31,463 nt of DNA from Candidatus Harrisonbacteria bacterium (GTDB lineage: Bacteria > Patescibacteriota > Minisyncoccia > UBA6257 > UBA11618): assembly GCA_023244865.1 (NCBI GenBank), contig JAHFLM010000001.1, positions 1 to 31,463 on the forward strand, given 5' to 3'. The position numbers were made by a program, and so were the translations under genes. Each line of letters opens with the position of its first letter. The first letter of the stretch is position 1. This document shows, in pieces, positions 2,784 through 21,943 of this stretch. The notes below the pieces were generated by a model, which did not search any database, was not told the DNA's origin, and saw nothing but the letters and a program-made list of their open reading frames with translations.

Positions 2784-2859
2784 TTTATAAGTATTCCAAA
2801 ATGCCAAGTAGATTACCACGGGAGTTTTGTGATTAATTTTTAAATATTGAATAGATTCT

Positions 2860-3066
2860 ACCCTCCTTCGCATAAAGCTACGGACGGGCACAGCGCCTCA
2901 ATTCCGAATTGATTCTTTGGGGAGATAAATGAGTGGATCCCGGATGAGTACTCCGGGACGACGAGTACGTCGATTGGGAGCGGGCTCTGAATGACCCACC
3001 TTCGCATGAAGCTTCGGCGAGGCACGGCAGTATGAAAAATTAAAAAAAATTAACCTCGCAATGACA
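2860..3066. repeat. cluster of short palindromic intergenic repeats
   Basis: Two ccttcgcat... palindromes (near 2866 and 2999), a reversed partial family A copy (2894-2923), cccggatgagtactccggg (2939-2957, identical at 6519-6537) and cctcgcaatgaca. Confidence 0.65.
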
Positions 3067-3073
3067 GTAAAAT

Positions 3074-3110
3074 AAAAAAACAGCCACCACTTGCGCGTGG
3101 TAGACTGTTT
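3074..3110 (-). terminator. intrinsic terminator for the last array gene
   Basis: aaacag...ctgttt hairpin with a T-run on the minus strand. Confidence 0.6.
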
Positions 3111-3157
3111 GCTTTAAGAGATACTTCCCTTTATATCCTGACTTCAATTTTCAAAGA

Positions 3158-3469
3158 TCACAAACTTTTTCCCGCTTCGATTTGTTGAGAGATAATGTCG
3201 AGCACATCATTGAGTCTCTGGATGATTGATGGCCTATCTCTTTCCAGTGGGCGAATATTCAAGATTAATGCCACCTCAGTCATGTCGCAATTTTCACCTT
3301 GCGTCGCAATCCAGGCATCTGAAACTTTAGCAGCCACCCCAGCATTTAGTGACACATCCGGCACCTTTGTCCCTGCATTGCAAACAATGAGTATCGAACA
3401 GCGGCTACATCCTTCGCAATCTGGTAAACCGTTCACCGTGAGCGTGAAGCCATTCCTGGCAATAATCAT
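3158..3469 (-). CDS. hypothetical protein, paralog array type A (Cys-containing)
   Basis: Aligns without gaps to 4968-5264 (GLPD..GCS.C, TEV, IRPLE, PS.IQRL); G-rich RBS. Confidence 0.8.
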   Translation of the reverse strand: MIIARNGFTLTVNGLPDCEGCSRCSILIVCNAGTKVPDVSLNAGVAAKVSDAWIATQGENCDMTEVALILNIRPLERDRPSIIQRLNDVLDIISQQIEAGKSL

Positions 3470-3475
3470 AAGACC

Positions 3476-3610
3476 CCCATGTTGAATTTGCGCTTGTTCT
3501 GGTATTTAGACGTAACGACCGATAGATCTATTACACTATCGAATCCCATCTTGAATTTCGGGTTGTTCTGGCATTTAAGCCGTAACCACCTAGTGATCCA
3601 TTACACTTTC
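3476..3610. repeat. tandem ~69-nt imperfect direct repeat, 2 copies
   Basis: 3476-3540 and 3545-3610 share cccat.ttgaattt....ttgttctgg.attta...cgtaac.acc....gatc.attacact.tc. Confidence 0.8.
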
Positions 3611-3613
3611 ATA

Positions 3614-3649
3614 AAAAACAACAAAAAACAGCCGCTTTTGCGACTGTTT
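3614..3649 (-). terminator. intrinsic terminator after the five-gene operon
   Basis: aaacag-c-cgc/gcg-a-ctgttt hairpin with a T-rich tail on the minus strand. Confidence 0.6.
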
Positions 3650-3663
3650 GCCTATTTTTACCA

Positions 3664-3984
3664 TTAGTAGTGACCTTCAAGTGTGGTTGGCTTATCTACG
3701 AAGTTGTCTTTCAAGATTTTATCGATCACCCGAGCTAGGCTAGAGAGAATTTTGGTTGCGTCATCGCTTTTGAATCGGATATCTACCTGACCTTCTATGC
3801 CAGAAAGAGGCTCCCCAACCCAATCGACGTCAACTTCTTTCATCAAATCAAGTTCGGTCAAAACTTCTACCAATCTCAGCTTTTGTCTGGCTTTTCCAAA
3901 AGACTGGTAGTCAATTCTCCATTTTTGCCTTTCAGCTTCTAGCTGTTTAGCTTCAACCTGAAAATATTGGTTTCGAAACTTCAT
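3664..3984 (-). CDS. hypothetical protein, paralog array type B
   Basis: Start reassigned to MKFRNQYF (ATG at 3984) behind an AGGAGG RBS; paralogous to its neighbours. Confidence 0.8.
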   Translation of the reverse strand: MKFRNQYFQVEAKQLEAERQKWRIDYQSFGKARQKLRLVEVLTELDLMKEVDVDWVGEPLSGIEGQVDIRFKSDDATKILSSLARVIDKILKDNFVDKPTTLEGHY

Positions 3985-4009
3985 GATCAACCTCCTTCTG
4001 GGGTGTTTG

Positions 4010-4303
4010 TTAACATGCAAAGTTATTGTACAAGAGTTTGTCCATTAGTATGGAAAGCTTCCGAAGTACGCTGTCCATACTTTGATCCAGGAATCGAAAG
4101 CTGAGTTTTGAGCTCATTCCTGTTACGCTTTCTTCGCTCTCTTTAATTTCAACTTTTCTCAATAAACCAATGTCAATCAAAGCTTCTGCTATCGAGACTT
4201 CCTGTCTCGCTTCACCTAAGGAGCTAACTTCAATCGTCCAAATCTGTAATACATGATCAGTCTGCGTTGCTTTAACGCTAAAATGTTCATTTTCAAAAAT
4301 CAT
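4010..4303 (-). CDS. hypothetical protein, paralog array type B
   Basis: Starts MIFENEHF; GGAGAGG RBS; shares W.I...S.G.ARQ with 3664-3984. Confidence 0.8.
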   Translation of the reverse strand: MIFENEHFSVKATQTDHVLQIWTIEVSSLGEARQEVSIAEALIDIGLLRKVEIKESEESVTGMSSKLSFRFLDQSMDSVLRKLSILMDKLLYNNFAC

Positions 4304-4305
4304 GA

Positions 4306-4620
4306 TTAACCCTCTCCTTCCATTCTCTCGGCAACGGTGGTGTTAGCCAAAATCGCGGTAATTAACCTTCCTATGTCAGAAAAAGCAACAATCAGTCCAT
4401 TGTGATTCGAAAATTGAATTTCAATAGAGCACTGTGTTTTGTCAGCATTTTTTTCATATTTGGTAACCTCCGCGCCTGGCATTAAGAATGCTTTTGCTAC
4501 ATCGGTTAATTCGGCGGCCTGCCCTACTTTTCCCTTTGACTCCACTTGAAACAGATAGGTATTTTCACTTGACCCCACCTGCTCAACCAAGAGTTTGAAA
4601 TACTGACTTTCAAATTTCAT
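4306..4620 (-). CDS. hypothetical protein, paralog array type B
   Basis: Starts MKFESQYF; AAGGAG RBS. Confidence 0.8.
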   Translation of the reverse strand: MKFESQYFKLLVEQVGSSENTYLFQVESKGKVGQAAELTDVAKAFLMPGAEVTKYEKNADKTQCSIEIQFSNHNGLIVAFSDIGRLITAILANTTVAERMEGEG

Positions 4621-4649
4621 AATCGATCTCCTTTTTGGTTTGAGATGAT

Positions 4650-4943
4650 TTAATCAACGAGTGTAAAATTCACAATAACTTGATCAACCAGATTTCCAAT
4701 TTGGCCAAGGATTACACCCCTCGCCCAGTTTGGAAAACGAATTTGTAAGCTGCAATAGCTTCGCTCTGGATTTTCATGGTAAAGCAAAACTTCTATGCCA
4801 CCCATTAGATGTCGAAGTAAATTATCCAGGGAACATTTCTGACGTTCTTCTTGTTTCGCATAACAAGTTATCGTCCAGTCTTGTTTGGGTCCATCATGCT
4901 TAGTTGCAATGATCGTAAAGTATTCACTTTCGAATTTTAGCAT
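4650..4943 (-). CDS. hypothetical protein, paralog array type B
   Basis: Starts MLKFESEYF; G-rich RBS. Confidence 0.8.
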   Translation of the reverse strand: MLKFESEYFTIIATKHDGPKQDWTITCYAKQEERQKCSLDNLLRHLMGGIEVLLYHENPERSYCSLQIRFPNWARGVILGQIGNLVDQVIVNFTLVD

Positions 4944-4967
4944 CGCCGTCCCCCTATCTTGCTTGAG

Positions 4968-5264
4968 TTACTCGGTATGACCAGAAACAAATCCAATTAT
5001 CTGACTAAGTCTTTGAATTACTGAAGGCTGATGCTGTTCGAGTGGTCGAATATGCAAGGTGATAGAGACTTCGGTAAAGCGCTCATTTTCTTGCTGGCCA
5101 GCAATACAAGCTCCAGGGACTCTCGTGGCTACCACAACAGATAGCGAGTCACGCTTCATTCTGGTTCCCGGTTCACATGAAACTTTGAGCATGCAGCAGC
5201 TACATCCATCATTATCTGGTAAGCCAATTACTTCAATTTTAAAGCATTTGAACTGCAGAAGCAT
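4968..5264 (-). CDS. hypothetical protein, paralog array type A
   Basis: Start reassigned to MLLQFKCF (ATG at 5264) behind an AAGGAG RBS; paralog of 3158-3469. Confidence 0.8.
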   Translation of the reverse strand: MLLQFKCFKIEVIGLPDNDGCSCCMLKVSCEPGTRMKRDSLSVVVATRVPGACIAGQQENERFTEVSITLHIRPLEQHQPSVIQRLSQIIGFVSGHTE

Positions 5265-5325
5265 TGCGATCTCCTTATTCAGTTGTGTTTTGAGGTGGGG
5301 AATCCAGCTCATTTGTTCTGCCGGC

Positions 5326-5354
5326 ATCATACCAAAAATAGGCTATTTTGTCAA
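5326..5354 (-). promoter_or_regulatory. sigma70-type promoter of the paralog operon
   Basis: On the minus strand: TTGACA, 17 nt, TATGAT. An imperfect palindrome at 5340-5363 overlaps the -35. Confidence 0.7.
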
Positions 5355-5553
5355 ATAAAGCCTAGATACCAAGCGATTTCCTGAATTTATTTCAGGACCT
5401 TCCATGGGTCGGCACTCAATCATTAGCCTTTTCGCCGTTATCAAAAATTGAGCTTTTTATTAACTAAAACAAAAACATCCCAATGAAGATCCTGAGGTAA
5501 ATTCAGGAAGACCCATACCAGCCGAACCCTTTTGCTTCATATTACAGTTAGTG

Positions 5554-5581
5554 TTGACAAAAACGCCCATTATGCTATACT
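5554..5581 (+). promoter_or_regulatory. sigma70-type promoter of the large RNA and tRNA
   Basis: TTGACA (5554-5559), 16 nt, extended -10 TG-c-TATACT (5576-5581); predicted +1 near 5588. Confidence 0.75.
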
Positions 5582-5587
5582 ATCCCC

Positions 5588-6211
5588 AGTTCCTAATACT
5601 AGTTCCGGTGATCTCTAGTTCGCGTATCGCATTTGGCGAACGCGATTAGTTTACTACTGAATATGCAAACTCGATGGCTTCCCAGCCGCATCAAGCTTGC
5701 CGACCCCAGTAGCTAAGCTAAGTGGAGCCGCATGGTAAAAAGCTTTTACAGGTAATAAGGTGATTTCTCCGTCACCGTTCCCTGGCTTGCCATAGGCAAG
5801 CCTAGTTTGTGGGTTAAGCTACCAAGTTGATCCCAAATTAGCTAAAGTCTATCCACGGCCCCGATCTTAAATTTCCTAGCCTTCTCGTGTTCATCGGCTA
5901 GTGAAATATTCATGGCGCGTCGCATGGTACGCCTTGAGAGGTCCACACAGAGATCACCGTTTTTTCAAATACGACTCTAGAGAGTTTGCCTTCCCTCAAA
6001 GTAAGGCGGCATTTGGTAAAAAAGGGGACCGTGACCCGGTTCTGGCGCCCCTATCACCAAGTGGAACAGTGTGCAAAAGTTAGCAAAAGACACTCGCAGA
6101 TTTAAGTGTCCACACTGTGCCGATCGATCCTGACCATCTTATTCAACACGGATGGTTGCGTAGCGAGGTTCTTCTCGCTTAGATGTCGAAGTCCACACCT
6201 CTAGTAGTTGG
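5588..6211 (+). ncRNA. candidate large (~620 nt) highly structured non-coding RNA, family unassigned
   Basis: Lies between a promoter and a tRNA. The ends pair (5593-5602 with 6201-6211), there is an 11-bp long-range helix (5606-5616 with 5949-5959), more than 12 local helices carry plus-strand G-U pairs, and there is no credible ORF. Confidence 0.7.
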
Positions 6212-6215
6212 TTTT

Positions 6216-6289
6216 GCTCTCTTAGCTCAGTTGGATAGAGCAACGGATTTCTAATCCGTAGGTCCCTGGTTCGAATCCTGGAGAGAGTA
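6216..6289 (+). tRNA. tRNA-Arg (anticodon UCU)
   Basis: Acceptor stem GCTCTCT/AGAGAGT, D arm, anticodon arm acgga-tttctaa-tccgt, T loop TTCGAAT; CCA is not encoded. Confidence 0.95.
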
Positions 6290-6292
6290 TTT

Positions 6293-6322
6293 ACCCCCGA
6301 TTTATTTCGGGGGTGTTTTTTT
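6293..6322 (+). terminator. intrinsic terminator
   Basis: acccccga/tcgggggt 8-bp stem followed by a T7 run. Confidence 0.85.
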
Positions 6323-6373
6323 ACCCGCCCCCGGTTTGTCATCCCGGAGTTAATTTTGTTTATTTTTTTATAC

Positions 6374-6441
6374 TGTCATTCAGAGCCCAACTTTGTTTAA
6401 TTTTTGAATAAAAAATTAAACAAAGTTGAGGCGTGGAATCT
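6374..6441 (+). repeat. TGTCAT-tagged palindromic repeat, family A (variant inner hairpin)
   Basis: tgtcattcagagccc...gaggcgtggaatct with an 18-bp perfect inner stem. Confidence 0.8.
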
Positions 6442-6618
6442 ACTTGTAGTGAGCTTGTCGAATCTATTCAATATTTAAAAAATAAATTACTCAGATTTAC
6501 TTAATTCGAGATTGCCACCCCGGATGAGTACTCCGGGGTAAACTTGCTTGAAGGCCTCCTCGCTCTAATTCTCGGAATTAGGACTCGAGATGACAGCCTG
6601 GCGTGTTATAATTTAAAA

Positions 6619-7530: not shown

Positions 7531-7648
7531 TGTCATTCAGAGCCCAATTCCGTTTGATTCTCCAAAGAATCAATTCGGAATTGAGGCGTGGAATCTTCCA
7601 TGTCTTTCAGTTAACAATGACTAGATTCCTGCCTCCGCAGGAATGACA
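7531..7648. repeat. composite (BIME-like) repeat: family A copy 7531-7596 plus inverted short palindrome 7623-7648
   Basis: Same arrangement as 12239-12356. Confidence 0.8.
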
Positions 7649-8655: not shown

Positions 8656-9675
8656 ATGTATCGCGTTATTACTTTAGGTGGAGCCACTTATGATGTGTTT
8701 TTAAAAAGCGAGGCCTTTCGGGAAGTTTCCGACCCTCATTTTAAAGGTGATAGTGATTTCCCTGGCGGTGTCGCCGAATGTTTTGCCTTAGGCAGTAAAA
8801 TTGCTCTCGATGAAATTATTAAAACCACAGGCGGTGGCGGGACTAACGCCGCCGTCACTTTTGCTCGCCAAGGTTTAAAGACCGCTGCCATTTACAAAGT
8901 CGGTCGCGATGTTTTTGGCGGTGAAATTATTAATGAACTCACCACCGAAAATGTAAAAAGTTTTGCGAACATCGACCCCAAAGAACCAACCGGCTATTCC
9001 ACCATTCTTTTAAGTCCGACAGGGGAGCGAACAGTTTTAGTTTACCGGGGTGCTGGTGGTAAATTAAGTCCCGCCGAAATTCCTTTAGAAAAACTTCGTT
9101 GTGATTGGCTTTATGTGACCCCGGGCAATATTCCTCTTAAAGTTTTAGAAAAAGTTTTAGACTACGCTGATCGTAAAGAAATTTTCGTGGCCATGAATCC
9201 TTCGGGCTTTTACATCGAGCAGGGGATTAAGACCTTGGCTGAACTTTTTAAAAATATTAAAGTTTTAATTTTAAACCAAGACGAAGCCGCTGAACTTACT
9301 AACTTACCCAACGAAGCATCGCGCCCTATTTTAGACAAACTCTGCGAATATTTTAAATGCATGGTCGTGATGACCAATGGCAAGCACGGCGCCCTAGTGA
9401 AGGCCGAAGATAAGCTTTATGAAGTCGGCACCTTCAAAGAAAAGGCGATCGTGGATAGGACCGGCGCCGGTGACGCCTTCGGTTCCGGCTTCGTCGCCGG
9501 CCTAATCGAAAAGCACGGCAAAGACATCGAATACGCCATCCGCCTCGCCTCCGCGAACGCCACTTCCGTAGTAGAAGTCATCGGCGCCAAACCCGGCATC
9601 CTCACCAACCGCGCATTCGAAAACAGCCCCCGTTTCAAAAAACTAACGATCAAGAAGTCTAATTATTCTAGTTAG
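8656..9675 (+). CDS. PfkB-family carbohydrate kinase
   Basis: GGGGTNAA and DRTGAGDAFGSGF signatures; ATG at 8656 is the likely start. Confidence 0.88.
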   Translation: MYRVITLGGATYDVFLKSEAFREVSDPHFKGDSDFPGGVAECFALGSKIALDEIIKTTGGGGTNAAVTFARQGLKTAAIYKVGRDVFGGEIINELTTENVKSFANIDPKEPTGYSTILLSPTGERTVLVYRGAGGKLSPAEIPLEKLRCDWLYVTPGNIPLKVLEKVLDYADRKEIFVAMNPSGFYIEQGIKTLAELFKNIKVLILNQDEAAELTNLPNEASRPILDKLCEYFKCMVVMTNGKHGALVKAEDKLYEVGTFKEKAIVDRTGAGDAFGSGFVAGLIEKHGKDIEYAIRLASANATSVVEVIGAKPGILTNRAFENSPRFKKLTIKKSNYSS

Positions 9676-9689
9676 TTTACTTTTTAAAC

Positions 9690-9753
9690 TGTCATTCAGA
9701 GCCCAATTCCATTTGATTCGTTAGGATCAAATTGGAATTGAGGCATGGAATCT
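9690..9753 (+). repeat. family A palindromic repeat
   Basis: Same end motifs as the other copies, with compensatory changes in the inner stem. Confidence 0.8.
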
Positions 9754-9827
9754 ACTCAATATCTAAAACAAATTTAATCGCATTTTACAAGCAAAAACCC
9801 CTTATTTTAAGCCTGTCCTATGTTATA

Positions 9828-21770: not shown

Positions 21771-21789
21771 TCGCCCATAAACGCTCAAC

Positions 21790-21855
21790 TGTCATTCAGA
21801 GCCCAATTCCGTTTGATTCCCCAAAGAATCAATTCGGAATTGAGGCGTGGAATCT
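21790..21855 (+). repeat. family A palindromic repeat
   Basis: Near-identical to 7531-7596. Confidence 0.8.
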
Positions 21856-21943
21856 ATTCAATATTTAAAAATTAATCACAAAACTCCCGTGGTTTATCCT
21901 GAGCATGGTCGAAGGGCAATCTAATCCATACCAAGAACGATTC

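Follow-up and report, generated by a model that had tools for sequence, protein, structure and literature searches.

A probable large, highly structured non-coding RNA encoded directly upstream of tRNA-Arg(UCU) in a single CPR genus

What is encoded by some 620 nt of DNA that lie between a strong promoter and a tRNA-Arg(UCU) gene and hold no credible open reading frame? This question was raised by an earlier note on a contig of Candidatus Harrisonbacteria bacterium (GenBank assembly GCA_023244865.1, contig JAHFLM010000001.1), which suggested a GOLLD/ROOL-like RNA or a new class of large RNA in a CPR genome. We analyzed the locus within a stretch of 31,463 nt (positions 1 to 31,463 of the contig; the window hereafter). 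The locus is probably a plus-strand gene for a stable, trans-acting and highly structured non-coding RNA of about 627 nt. The coordinates of its features are listed in Table 1.

Table 1. Features of the large RNA locus and its surroundings, with positions counted in the window.
Feature	Position	Strand	Details
Genus-specific 3.7-kb insertion between rpe and tkt	2784..6543	.	Orphan genes, RNA, tRNA, flanking dispersed-repeat copies
Six orphan genes, ~100 aa each	3158-5330	-	Inside the rpe-tkt insertion
Sigma-70-type promoter	5554..5581	+	-35 TTGACA, 16-nt spacer, TG-extended -10 TATACT
Large non-coding RNA, ~627 nt (predicted)	5588..6214	+	Leader, domain 1, linker, domain 2, 4-nt tail
5′ leader, unpaired	5588..5605	+	Invariant in all variants; AGUUCC twice
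Domain 1	5606..5959	+	P1 5606-5616/5949-5959 plus GU/AC 5618-19/5947-48
P2 of domain 1	5620-5645	+	Variable, compensated
P3 of domain 1	5646-5721	+	
AAGUGGA motif, domain 1	5720..5726	+	GUGGA 5722-5726/UCCAC 5942-5946 pairing possible; invariant
P4 of domain 1	5727-5859	+	Hairpins 5749-5784, 5785-5801, 5802-5841
P5 of domain 1	5863-5943	+	Hairpins 5871-5907, 5910-5937
GUCCACAC motif, domain 1	5941..5948	+	Runs straight into P1 3′ strand
Inter-domain linker, U-rich	5960..5971	+	5 nt shorter in G001
Domain 2	5972..6210	+	Closing helix 5972-5982/6199-6210 (6205 bulged) plus GU/AC 5984-85/6197-98
P7 of domain 2	5986-6009	+	
P8 of domain 2	6013-6060	+	Tip variable
AAGUGGA motif, domain 2	6059..6065	+	GUGGA 6061-6065/UCCAC 6192-6196 paired in RNAalifold consensus
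P9 of domain 2	6066-6118	+	Tip replaced in G001
P10 of domain 2	6124-6189	+	Hairpins 6132-6157, 6162-6179
GUCCACAC motif, domain 2	6191..6198	+	Continuous with closing-helix 3′ strand
tRNA-Arg(UCU), extra copy	6215..6290	+	No encoded CCA; 68.8 bits; G001 copy 100% identical
Intrinsic terminator	6292..6322 (hairpin 6292-6315 plus T run)	+	9-bp stem, 6 G-C pairs

The near-consensus extended promoter described in the earlier note was recovered. Its hexamers match at 11 of 12 positions, the TG is present and the predicted transcription start is near 5588. Among the natural variants of the locus, the hexamers were identical and the spacer was variable, and the invariance of the sequence starts at 5588. 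The remaining layout was also as described, with tRNA-Arg(UCU) 4 nt after the RNA and then a single terminator. Neither a terminator nor a promoter was found in the 4-nt gap. The terminator, which is kept in the variant G001 with changes in its loop, is the only one of the unit; the large RNA lacks its own terminator, and the tRNA its own promoter. A second copy of tRNA-Arg(TCT) sits within a tRNA cluster on another contig (C59). Thus, the copy at 6215-6290 is redundant and dispensable in principle.

This layout suggests that the large RNA and tRNA-Arg are made as one precursor, in which an RNase P cut at the 5′ end of the tRNA would set the 3′ end of the RNA at about 6214. Release of the RNA from the tRNA by RNase P, as the earlier note supposed, is reasonable because the gap is only 4 nt long, no terminator or promoter lies between the two and the genome encodes an RNase P RNA. 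We infer the expression, the ends and the processing of the large RNA from the sequence.

The non-coding status of the region was borne out over the whole ~627 nt. No ORF longer than 60 aa was found in 5588-6214 under table 11, and under table 25 no stop-to-stop frame in the RNA region was over 67 aa. The indels that distinguish the variants were 1, 2, 4, 5, 8, 9 and 14 nt long, mostly not multiples of three, and the lone 60-aa ORF was hit by a 5-nt deletion. A protein gene, even a recoded one (table 25), was rejected on the length of the longest frame and the sizes of the indels.

We also searched Rfam with cmscan, at the gathering threshold and, using the query 5400-6400 with lax filters, at E ≤ 10. 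The sole matches were the tRNA and chance hits that resemble terminators, and no known family matched the RNA. Membership in GOLLD (RF01998), ROOL (RF03087) and OLE (RF01071) was each rejected, as neither threshold gave a match. RNase P RNA (RF00010/RF00011) had no match in the region and the genome's own gene is on C76:13021-13400 (59 bits, E = 4.6e-18). Similarly, ARAGORN found no tmRNA (RF00023) in the window, and the genome's own is on C21:7833-8244 (89 bits). No group I or group II intron was detected at E ≤ 10, and there was neither an interrupted host gene nor an intron-encoded protein. Because GOLLD and ROOL failed to match even at E ≤ 10, the part of the earlier proposal that would place the RNA in these families does not stand, and what is left is a likeness in size, complexity and tRNA adjacency. 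The other part, a new class, is favored by covariation together with the missing Rfam match. The large RNA is a new family among the large ornate bacterial RNAs.

The known distribution of this family is a single CPR genus. No homolog outside the genus was revealed by BLAST searches of 60 relatives and of 400 genomes each from the order and the phylum, and covariance models (R1 against 150 relatives, R2 against the family) found nothing beyond it. A 19-mer scan of JGI metagenomes gave 0 matches, and the synteny matches obtained through tRNA-Arg in genomes of the family were other tRNAs. When GTDB genomes and JGI metagenomes were scanned with a motif-pair pattern, G001 was recovered. Two further matches lay inside long ORFs on high-GC contigs, were matched by neither covariance model and were discarded as chance. 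The search through the neighboring orphan proteins led to contigs of the same genus only, and it yielded a third variant of the RNA, L041. In our literature search, no large RNA was found described for Patescibacteria or Saccharibacteria.

Compared with 60 dinucleotide shuffles, the whole RNA had a folding z-score of -5.3 and domain 1 of -7.5, and coding controls in the same test ranged from -0.2 to -2.3. The RNA thus folds far better than shuffled controls; the earlier note had named the opposite outcome as a refutation of function. Domain 2 by itself showed a modest excess over the shuffles (z = -2.2). The variant set consists of three distinct sequences from one genus, namely G000, G001 and the mosaic L041. 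All three have the same architecture, with G000 and G001 folded independently. They share an invariant core, on which discrete hairpin tips have been swapped wholesale and yet are always hairpins. On the contig X7, the interior of domain 2 is replaced.

Within P4-P5, all of the 210 pair cells were standard, and the seven two-sided and nine one-sided changes all kept the pairs, compared with 0-1 in slid controls. Domain 2 had 97.4% of its cells paired and five two-sided changes. Covariation, which had also been proposed as a check, was thus observed in both domains, among three variants of one genus. P1, P3, P5b and both GUGGA/UCCAC helices never vary, because the set has just three distinct sequences from one genus. 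As the earlier note claimed, the wobble pairs fix the orientation in domain 1: on the plus strand, P4-P5 has 24 G-U cells versus 0 A-C cells, and RNAalifold gave -71.0 for the plus strand versus -56.8 for the minus strand. For domain 2, the pairing is not decisive.

The perfect 11-bp helix that closes domain 1 (5606-5616/5949-5959) is present in the independent MFE folds of both G000 and G001, and almost all of the other helices proposed earlier recur in these folds. The proposed pairing of the RNA ends (5597-5602/6201-6206) is not supported. The two segments are complementary, but G001 has A in place of T6205, so that the helix is broken there. A rival helix, 5972-5985/6197-6210, stays paired in G001, with 6205 bulged and with a change of G5973 to A that turns a G-U pair into A-U.

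Both domains follow a common junction plan: closing helix, A, GU, two hairpins, AAGUGGA, two branches, GUCCACAC and the closing helix again. If GUGGA pairs with UCCAC in each domain, the resulting inner helix would be stacked on the closing helix, and two four-way junctions of cloverleaf topology would arise. With these helices, the predicted multistem junctions would number up to seven. Forcing the GUGGA/UCCAC helix and its twin in domain 2 cost just 1.8-3.4 kcal/mol, and the pairings that compete with GUGGA/UCCAC are extended forms of P4, P5 or P8. The change of U6012 to G in G001 weakens the P8 extension. The GUCCACAC octamer has 14 copies in the 771-kb genome, three of them inside the large RNA. 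In P10, the hairpin 6132-6157 has a covarying stem and an invariant loop, UUCAACAC, and the hairpin 6162-6179 is replaced in G001. A tandem duplication of the two domains was considered but could not be demonstrated, as the covariance model of domain 2 obtained only trivial hairpins in domain 1. Domains 1 and 2 have the junction motif in common, not a demonstrable homology.

The RNA and the tRNA are part of a genus-specific insertion. Relatives lack it: among 14 loci inspected in the family, 13 have rpe directly 5′ of tkt. The six orphan genes in this insertion raise the alternative that the RNA is a subunit of a dedicated ribonucleoprotein, functional only together with 4-6 divergently encoded small proteins. 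We regard this as unlikely. In each of the three variants, the RNA and the paralog array are neighbors with divergent promoters, both are restricted to the same genus, the proteins form two related families with one predicted alpha+beta fold, and the repeated junction motifs and UC(C/A)ACAC loops might be repeated binding sites. However, searches of Pfam, PHROG and PADLOC assigned the proteins to no family and gave no recognizable RNA-binding domain, and atlas leads on small-protein function were at chance level. The AlphaFold model of the type B protein was good (pLDDT 86), but Foldseek found nothing for it at E < 0.005. Furthermore, the number of paralogs varies among the variants (4, 5 or 6) with no matching change in the RNA core, and being neighbors in one inserted cassette does not count as evidence for an interaction. 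Rather less probable still is the reading in which the RNA is of the GOLLD/ROOL type, came from a phage or another mobile element and has diverged past Rfam detection, the island being a decayed prophage or an integrative element with its own tRNA. The size, the multistem junctions, the tRNA adjacency and the accessory location fit the published properties of these families (PMC5737381), the tRNA is a redundant copy, and the top structural look-alikes of the type B protein are uncharacterized phage proteins, with weak scores (E 0.007-0.01). Nevertheless, neither family was matched by a 1-kb query under the permissive settings described above, two IMG/VR pattern scans were empty and GenBank phages matched the tRNA alone. 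No phage, integrase or transposase gene or other mobile-element machinery was recognizable in the island. Its flanking inverted repeats were rejected as element ends, because they belong to a genome-wide family dispersed over more than 30 contigs.

The dependence of the promoterless tRNA on read-through of 627 nt, with a gap of just 4 nt, could also mean that the region serves as a very long 5′ leader, controlling in cis the synthesis or maturation of tRNA-Arg(UCU), and has no function of its own. This is very improbable. Two domains and 130-plus base pairs in 627 nt would be spent on a tRNA that a second copy makes dispensable in principle, and the invariant core with compensated stems argues for an RNA selected for its own fold. 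We know of no precedent for such a leader on a redundant tRNA. We give hardly any credence to the view that there is no functional RNA at all, that is, that the stretch is filler of a recent insertion with fortuitous hairpins or DNA-level palindromes, or that the minus strand is the functional one. The minus strand folds equally well thermodynamically, the pairing statistics of domain 2 are strand-neutral, hairpin-forming dispersed repeats are abundant in the genome, and the distribution is limited to one genus. Against this, domain 1 (95-98%) is more conserved than the flanking protein genes (82-100%, patchy), and the stretch occurs once and has no relation to the dispersed repeats. Stem changes are compensatory, and the plus strand shows G-U but no A-C. 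The promoter, tRNA and terminator also all face the plus strand, and no minus-strand promoter was found downstream.

We therefore return to the trans-acting structured RNA as the preferred reading. By analogy with proposals for GOLLD and ROOL, it may fold on its own and serve an accessory cassette, probably derived from a mobile element, as an architectural or scaffold RNA. Its working surface would then consist of the invariant core and loops, with the hypervariable tips as exposed decoration. A more specific and tentative proposal, which we consider possible but do not expect to hold in full, is that the RNA founds a new class of large ornate RNAs. Such an RNA would be pseudo-dimeric, with two four-way-junction modules of cloverleaf topology, and RNase P would generate its mature form from an RNA-tRNA precursor. 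It would belong to a cassette with its own tRNA and orphan proteins that inserts in housekeeping operons, and the swapping of its tips between strains would possibly reflect diversifying selection, e.g. through a conflict with phages or the host bacterium.

To our knowledge, only a handful of bacterial non-coding RNAs exceed 500 nt (rRNAs, group II introns, GOLLD, ROOL and OLE). Each of them gave an unexpected RNA architecture. The RNA described here is in this size class and has covariation in its favor. Its source is an ultra-small, episymbiotic groundwater bacterium with a genome of 0.77 Mb, in which almost every base is under pressure. Its distinctive features are the internal two-fold repeat of a junction motif and the strain-level swapping of hairpin tips on an invariant core. 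Its predicted obligate co-transcription with a tRNA would imply a 3′ end made by RNase P. In mammals, the 3′ end of the long non-coding RNA MALAT1 is formed by RNase P at a tRNA-like unit, mascRNA. In both cases, a tRNA or tRNA-like unit comes directly after a long structured RNA that lacks its own terminator. However, the downstream unit of the large RNA is a genuine, apparently functional bacterial tRNA, and the cleavage is a predicted one.

OLE (RF01071) is likewise an ornate, lineage-restricted non-coding RNA of about 600 nt, the function of which was long obscure. OLE lies in a conserved operon with genes of partner proteins in extremophilic Bacillota, whereas the large RNA, which its model does not match, lies in an orphan island with a tRNA. 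Like ROOL and GOLLD, the RNA described here is a very large bacterial non-coding RNA (>550 nt) with many multistem junctions, which in its case are predicted; the average length of ROOL is 581 nt (PMC5737381). GOLLD and ROOL are often near tRNA genes, with which co-transcription has been suggested, and in accessory or prophage DNA (PMC5737381); here, the RNA is adjacent to a tRNA in an inserted island. According to a recent paper (PMC12286853), GOLLD, ROOL and OLE form RNA-only homo-oligomeric complexes. The large RNA differs from ROOL and GOLLD in that it was unmatched by their covariance models at any threshold tried, has no recognizable prophage around it, has no pseudoknot established from three sequences and is restricted to a single CPR genus. 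It also differs in its plan, as it consists of two side-by-side domains with a common junction motif.

The large RNA, the stretch of 627 nt between the predicted transcription start and the tRNA-Arg(UCU), is a genuine structured RNA gene that had not been catalogued before; it lies in a genus-specific island and is predicted to be transcribed together with a redundant tRNA-Arg. The segment 5554-6322 on the plus strand is a single compact transcription unit, which runs from promoter to terminator and comprises a covariation-supported two-domain RNA and the tRNA. The earlier note had described a near-consensus extended promoter with its start near 5588, about 620 nt without a credible ORF, and a tRNA-Arg(UCU) followed by one terminator, and all of these were borne out. 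In the 627-nt stretch, no ORF longer than 60 aa was found under table 11 and no stop-to-stop frame longer than 67 aa under table 25. Most of the indels among variants were not multiples of three, and a 5-nt deletion between variants hits the sole 60-aa ORF. The promoter hexamers were unchanged in all variants and the spacer differed. Invariant sequence starts exactly at 5588 across the variants, which fits the predicted start site. A consensus scan revealed no additional promoter or terminator between the large RNA and the tRNA; thus, the tRNA seems dependent on the promoter upstream of the large RNA.

Features of the transcription unit, the folded RNA and related genes
Feature	Coordinates	Strand	Details
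Promoter	5554-5581	+	TTGACA, 16-nt spacer, TG-extended TATACT; 11/12 matches (consensus scan)
Predicted transcription start	near 5588	+	from promoter position
Domain 1 closing helix (P1)	5606-5616/5949-5959	+	perfect, 11 bp, plus GU/AC
P2 hairpin, domain 1	5620-5645	+	independent folds
P3 long hairpin, domain 1	5646-5721	+	independent folds
P4 four-way element, domain 1	5727-5859	+	independent folds
P5 three-way element, domain 1	5863-5943	+	independent folds
Domain 2 closing helix	5972-5985/6197-6210	+	independent folds
tRNA-Arg(UCU)	6215-6290	+	ARAGORN and Rfam; 68.8 bits
Intrinsic terminator	6292-6315	+	9-bp G+C-rich hairpin, then T run (consensus scan)
Small-protein array	3158-5330	-	six orphan genes, ~100 aa each, two related families
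Housekeeping tRNA-Arg(TCT)	G000:C59:7038-7107 (L016:1501-1573)		Phe-His-Pro-Arg cluster

In the covariance-model search against Rfam 15 that the earlier note had suggested, the large RNA matched no family, either at the gathering threshold or at E<=10 with a 1-kb query. Besides the tRNA, the only Rfam matches were terminator-like chance matches. The large RNA was rejected as RNase P RNA and as tmRNA because the genome has these elsewhere, on contigs C76 and C21, respectively. The RNase P RNA (G000:C76:13021-13400) is divergent; with RF00010 it scored 59 bits, where the gathering score is 100. At the locus, we found neither an intron context nor a nearby reverse transcriptase, transposase or CRISPR-associated protein. 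Within the large ornate RNAs of bacteria, the large RNA represents a new family. The earlier note had offered a GOLLD/ROOL-like RNA or a new class; the new family stands, and a match to the known ones was not obtained.

The source genome (G000; 771 kb in 88 contigs) shares the element with a same-genus genome (G001) at 82% identity. A third variant was reached with a neighboring orphan protein as query in a large protein collection, which led to groundwater contigs in ENA; one of these (L043) was identical to G001, and the other (L041) was the new variant. L041 is a mosaic, with a P2 hairpin of the G001 type, a domain 2 of the G000 type and a P4 region like neither. In one relative's contig, the interior of domain 2 is swapped for 189 other letters. 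Near-identical words were present in DNA runs from groundwater and drinking-water metagenomes; no RNA-seq run was listed with the segment. The distribution searches were samples and exact-pattern scans, so their negative results mean 'not found in those searched' and not 'absent': no homolog outside the genus was found by BLAST, which covered 60 relatives and 400 genomes each from the order and the phylum, by covariance-model searches of the family and of 150 relatives, by JGI metagenome pattern scans or by a GTDB-wide motif-pair pattern scan. IMG/VR pattern scans found no homolog, and in GenBank phages the tRNA was the only match and the large RNA was not found. Two extra matches to the motif-pair pattern lay inside long ORFs of high-GC contigs and were dismissed as chance.

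Folding energies were compared with those of 60 dinucleotide-preserving shuffles, a comparison also suggested in the earlier note, and with two coding stretches of the window, matched in length, as controls. The z-score was -5.3 for the whole 627 nt, -7.5 for domain 1 (5606-5959) by itself and -2.2 for domain 2 (5972-6210), compared with -0.2 to -2.3 for the coding controls. Independent folds of G000 and G001 gave the same architecture and recovered nearly all of the helices listed in the earlier note, including the one closing domain 1. Domain 2 contains P7, P8, P9 and the three-way element P10. Covariance models were built from the RNAalifold consensus, and pairs were counted in the alignments fitted to them. 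In P4-P5, standard pairs were found in 210 of the 210 pair cells, with two-sided changes in seven pairs and one-sided changes in nine, pairing being kept in all; these small counts, like those for domain 2, rest on three sequences from one genus and on alignments biased toward the model. When the partner was moved by 1-3 columns, two-sided changes numbered 0-1 and pairing was 30-49%, a contrast that is clear despite only three sequences. In domain 2, 97.4% of the cells were paired and five pairs had two-sided changes; the few unpaired cells fell where the G001 hairpin differs. Variation was confined mainly to hairpin tips (P2, the tops of P8 and P9, P10b, and P4a-c in L041), which were swapped almost entirely between variants, yet formed hairpins every time. 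The remainder of domain 1 had 95-98% identity, compared with 82-100% in the flanking protein genes, and is thus conserved above them.

One claim of the earlier note, that the RNA ends pair (5597-5602 with 6201-6206), did not survive: T6205 is A in G001, which disrupts the helix. The competing helix 5972-5982/6199-6210 accommodates 6205 as a bulge, and in it the change of G5973 to A turns a G-U pair into A-U. As the end pairing is broken and the competing helix kept, the large RNA is not one end-closed domain but two adjacent domains preceded by a free leader of 18 nt, which is invariant. Two hairpin loops do not vary either: that of P5a (5884-5897; 14 nt) includes GUGUU and that of P10a (6142-6149) includes AACAC; judged from these sequences, a 5-bp inter-domain loop-loop contact is possible. 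The 3′ strand of P1 carries GAUCACC, to which the 5′ strand is complementary. GAUCACC is the heptamer of the canonical 16S rRNA 3′ tail, and a 7-mer coincidence is plausible.

The octamer GUCCACAC has 14 copies in the whole genome, three of them within the large RNA. Two of the three, at 5941 and 6191, do not vary, occupy equivalent positions in the two domains and each run straight into the 3′ strand of the closing helix; the third (6108) belongs to a variable hairpin tip and is missing from G001. AAGUGGA is invariant after the second hairpin of each domain (5720 and 6059), and GUGGA is complementary to UCCAC in both domains. RNAalifold selected the GUGGA/UCCAC helix in domain 2, where the change of U6012 to G in G001 weakens the rival P8 extension. 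Forcing it in both domains carried a penalty of 1.8-3.4 kcal/mol, against a total above 200. Because this pairing is open to both domains, they can be read as the same junction; the order in both is therefore closing helix, A, GU, hairpin, hairpin, AA-GUGGA, two branches, G-UCCAC, AC, closing helix. With the predicted GUGGA/UCCAC helix formed, each domain would be a four-way junction with one continuous strand and a cloverleaf-like topology. The domain-2 covariance model did not recognise domain 1, and a tandem duplication of the domains is no more than possible.

Of the 14 family loci examined, 13 have rpe immediately upstream of the split transketolase gene. In G000, 3.7 kb (2784-6543) is inserted between the two, and this island contains the six minus-strand orphan genes, the large RNA and the tRNA. 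In the array, four type B genes lie inside and the outermost genes are of type A, marked by the conserved motif GLPD..GCS.C; both types have the same predicted order, beta-beta-beta-alpha-beta-beta-alpha (type B pLDDT 86). The island tRNA is redundant: a second tRNA-Arg copy, 82% identical to it, is present on C59 in both G000 and G001. The island copy has 87% identity to tRNA-Arg genes of Aeromonas and Klebsiella phages, which says little on its origin since tRNAs are conserved anyway. Short hairpin-forming intergenic repeats (in the window, 2830-3085, 6337-6540, 7531-7596, 9672-9756 and 21788-21893) resemble terminal inverted repeats at first sight where they lie on both island sides; they were rejected as element ends because the same family is scattered over more than 30 contigs. 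Another inverted repeat (5378-5509; 31-nt arms, 84% complementary, 70 nt apart) is located between the divergent promoters of the large RNA and the small-gene array, and has look-alikes on C85. Elsewhere in the genome, a 2.5-kb segment (G000:C14:8434-10936; L058) has no ORF of at least 80 aa, no Rfam match at the gathering threshold and folding z-scores of -8.6 to -9.6 in three pieces; it is either a further very large structured RNA or an array of dispersed hairpin repeats. Two ORF-free segments of 0.7-0.9 kb without an Rfam match, G000:C15:6942-7842 (L060) and G000:C1:6038-6715 (L065), had z-scores of -3.7 and -4.5.

We propose that the large RNA and the tRNA are transcribed as one precursor. 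RNase P, its RNA being encoded in the genome, would cleave at the tRNA 5′ end and so set the 3′ end of the large RNA, four nucleotides past the last helix. The large RNA, folding by itself, would then have an architectural role in trans. Its functional surface might consist of the invariant leader, P1, P3, P5, the junction motifs and loops such as UUCAACAC, an invariant loop on the covarying P10a stem, and the swappable hairpin tips might be exposed decoration. A dedicated RNP of the large RNA and the neighboring small proteins seems rather unlikely to us; their genes number 4, 5 or 6 per variant, the proteins could be assigned to no family in Pfam, PHROG or PADLOC, and fold searches gave no significant match. 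Outside the genus, no homolog of these proteins was found. It is very improbable that the large RNA is a giant cis-leader of the tRNA, with which it shares a promoter and which is redundant.

That the large RNA lacks function, or that the minus strand is the functional one, is hardly credible. The minus strand had a folding z-score of -6.9, and the strands are not separable by thermodynamics. For P4-P5, however, RNAalifold gave -71.0 kcal/mol on the plus strand against -56.8 on the minus strand, and the 24 G-U cells of the plus-strand helices, which have no A-C cells, turn into A-C mismatches on the minus strand. The earlier note had held that G-U wobbles fix the orientation, which is correct for P4-P5 and not decisive for domain 2, which was strand-neutral by this test. 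The P4-P5 comparison, taken with the direction in which promoter, tRNA and terminator point, identifies the plus strand as the working one.

As a trans-acting architectural RNA, the large RNA would resemble GOLLD and ROOL, which, like it, are tRNA-adjacent, of comparable size and located on accessory DNA (PMC5737381). By this analogy, it may be part of a cassette of mobile-element origin. That it is a relative of GOLLD or ROOL that has diverged past recognition is improbable. For these two RNAs, homo-oligomeric assemblies are reported (PMC12286853).
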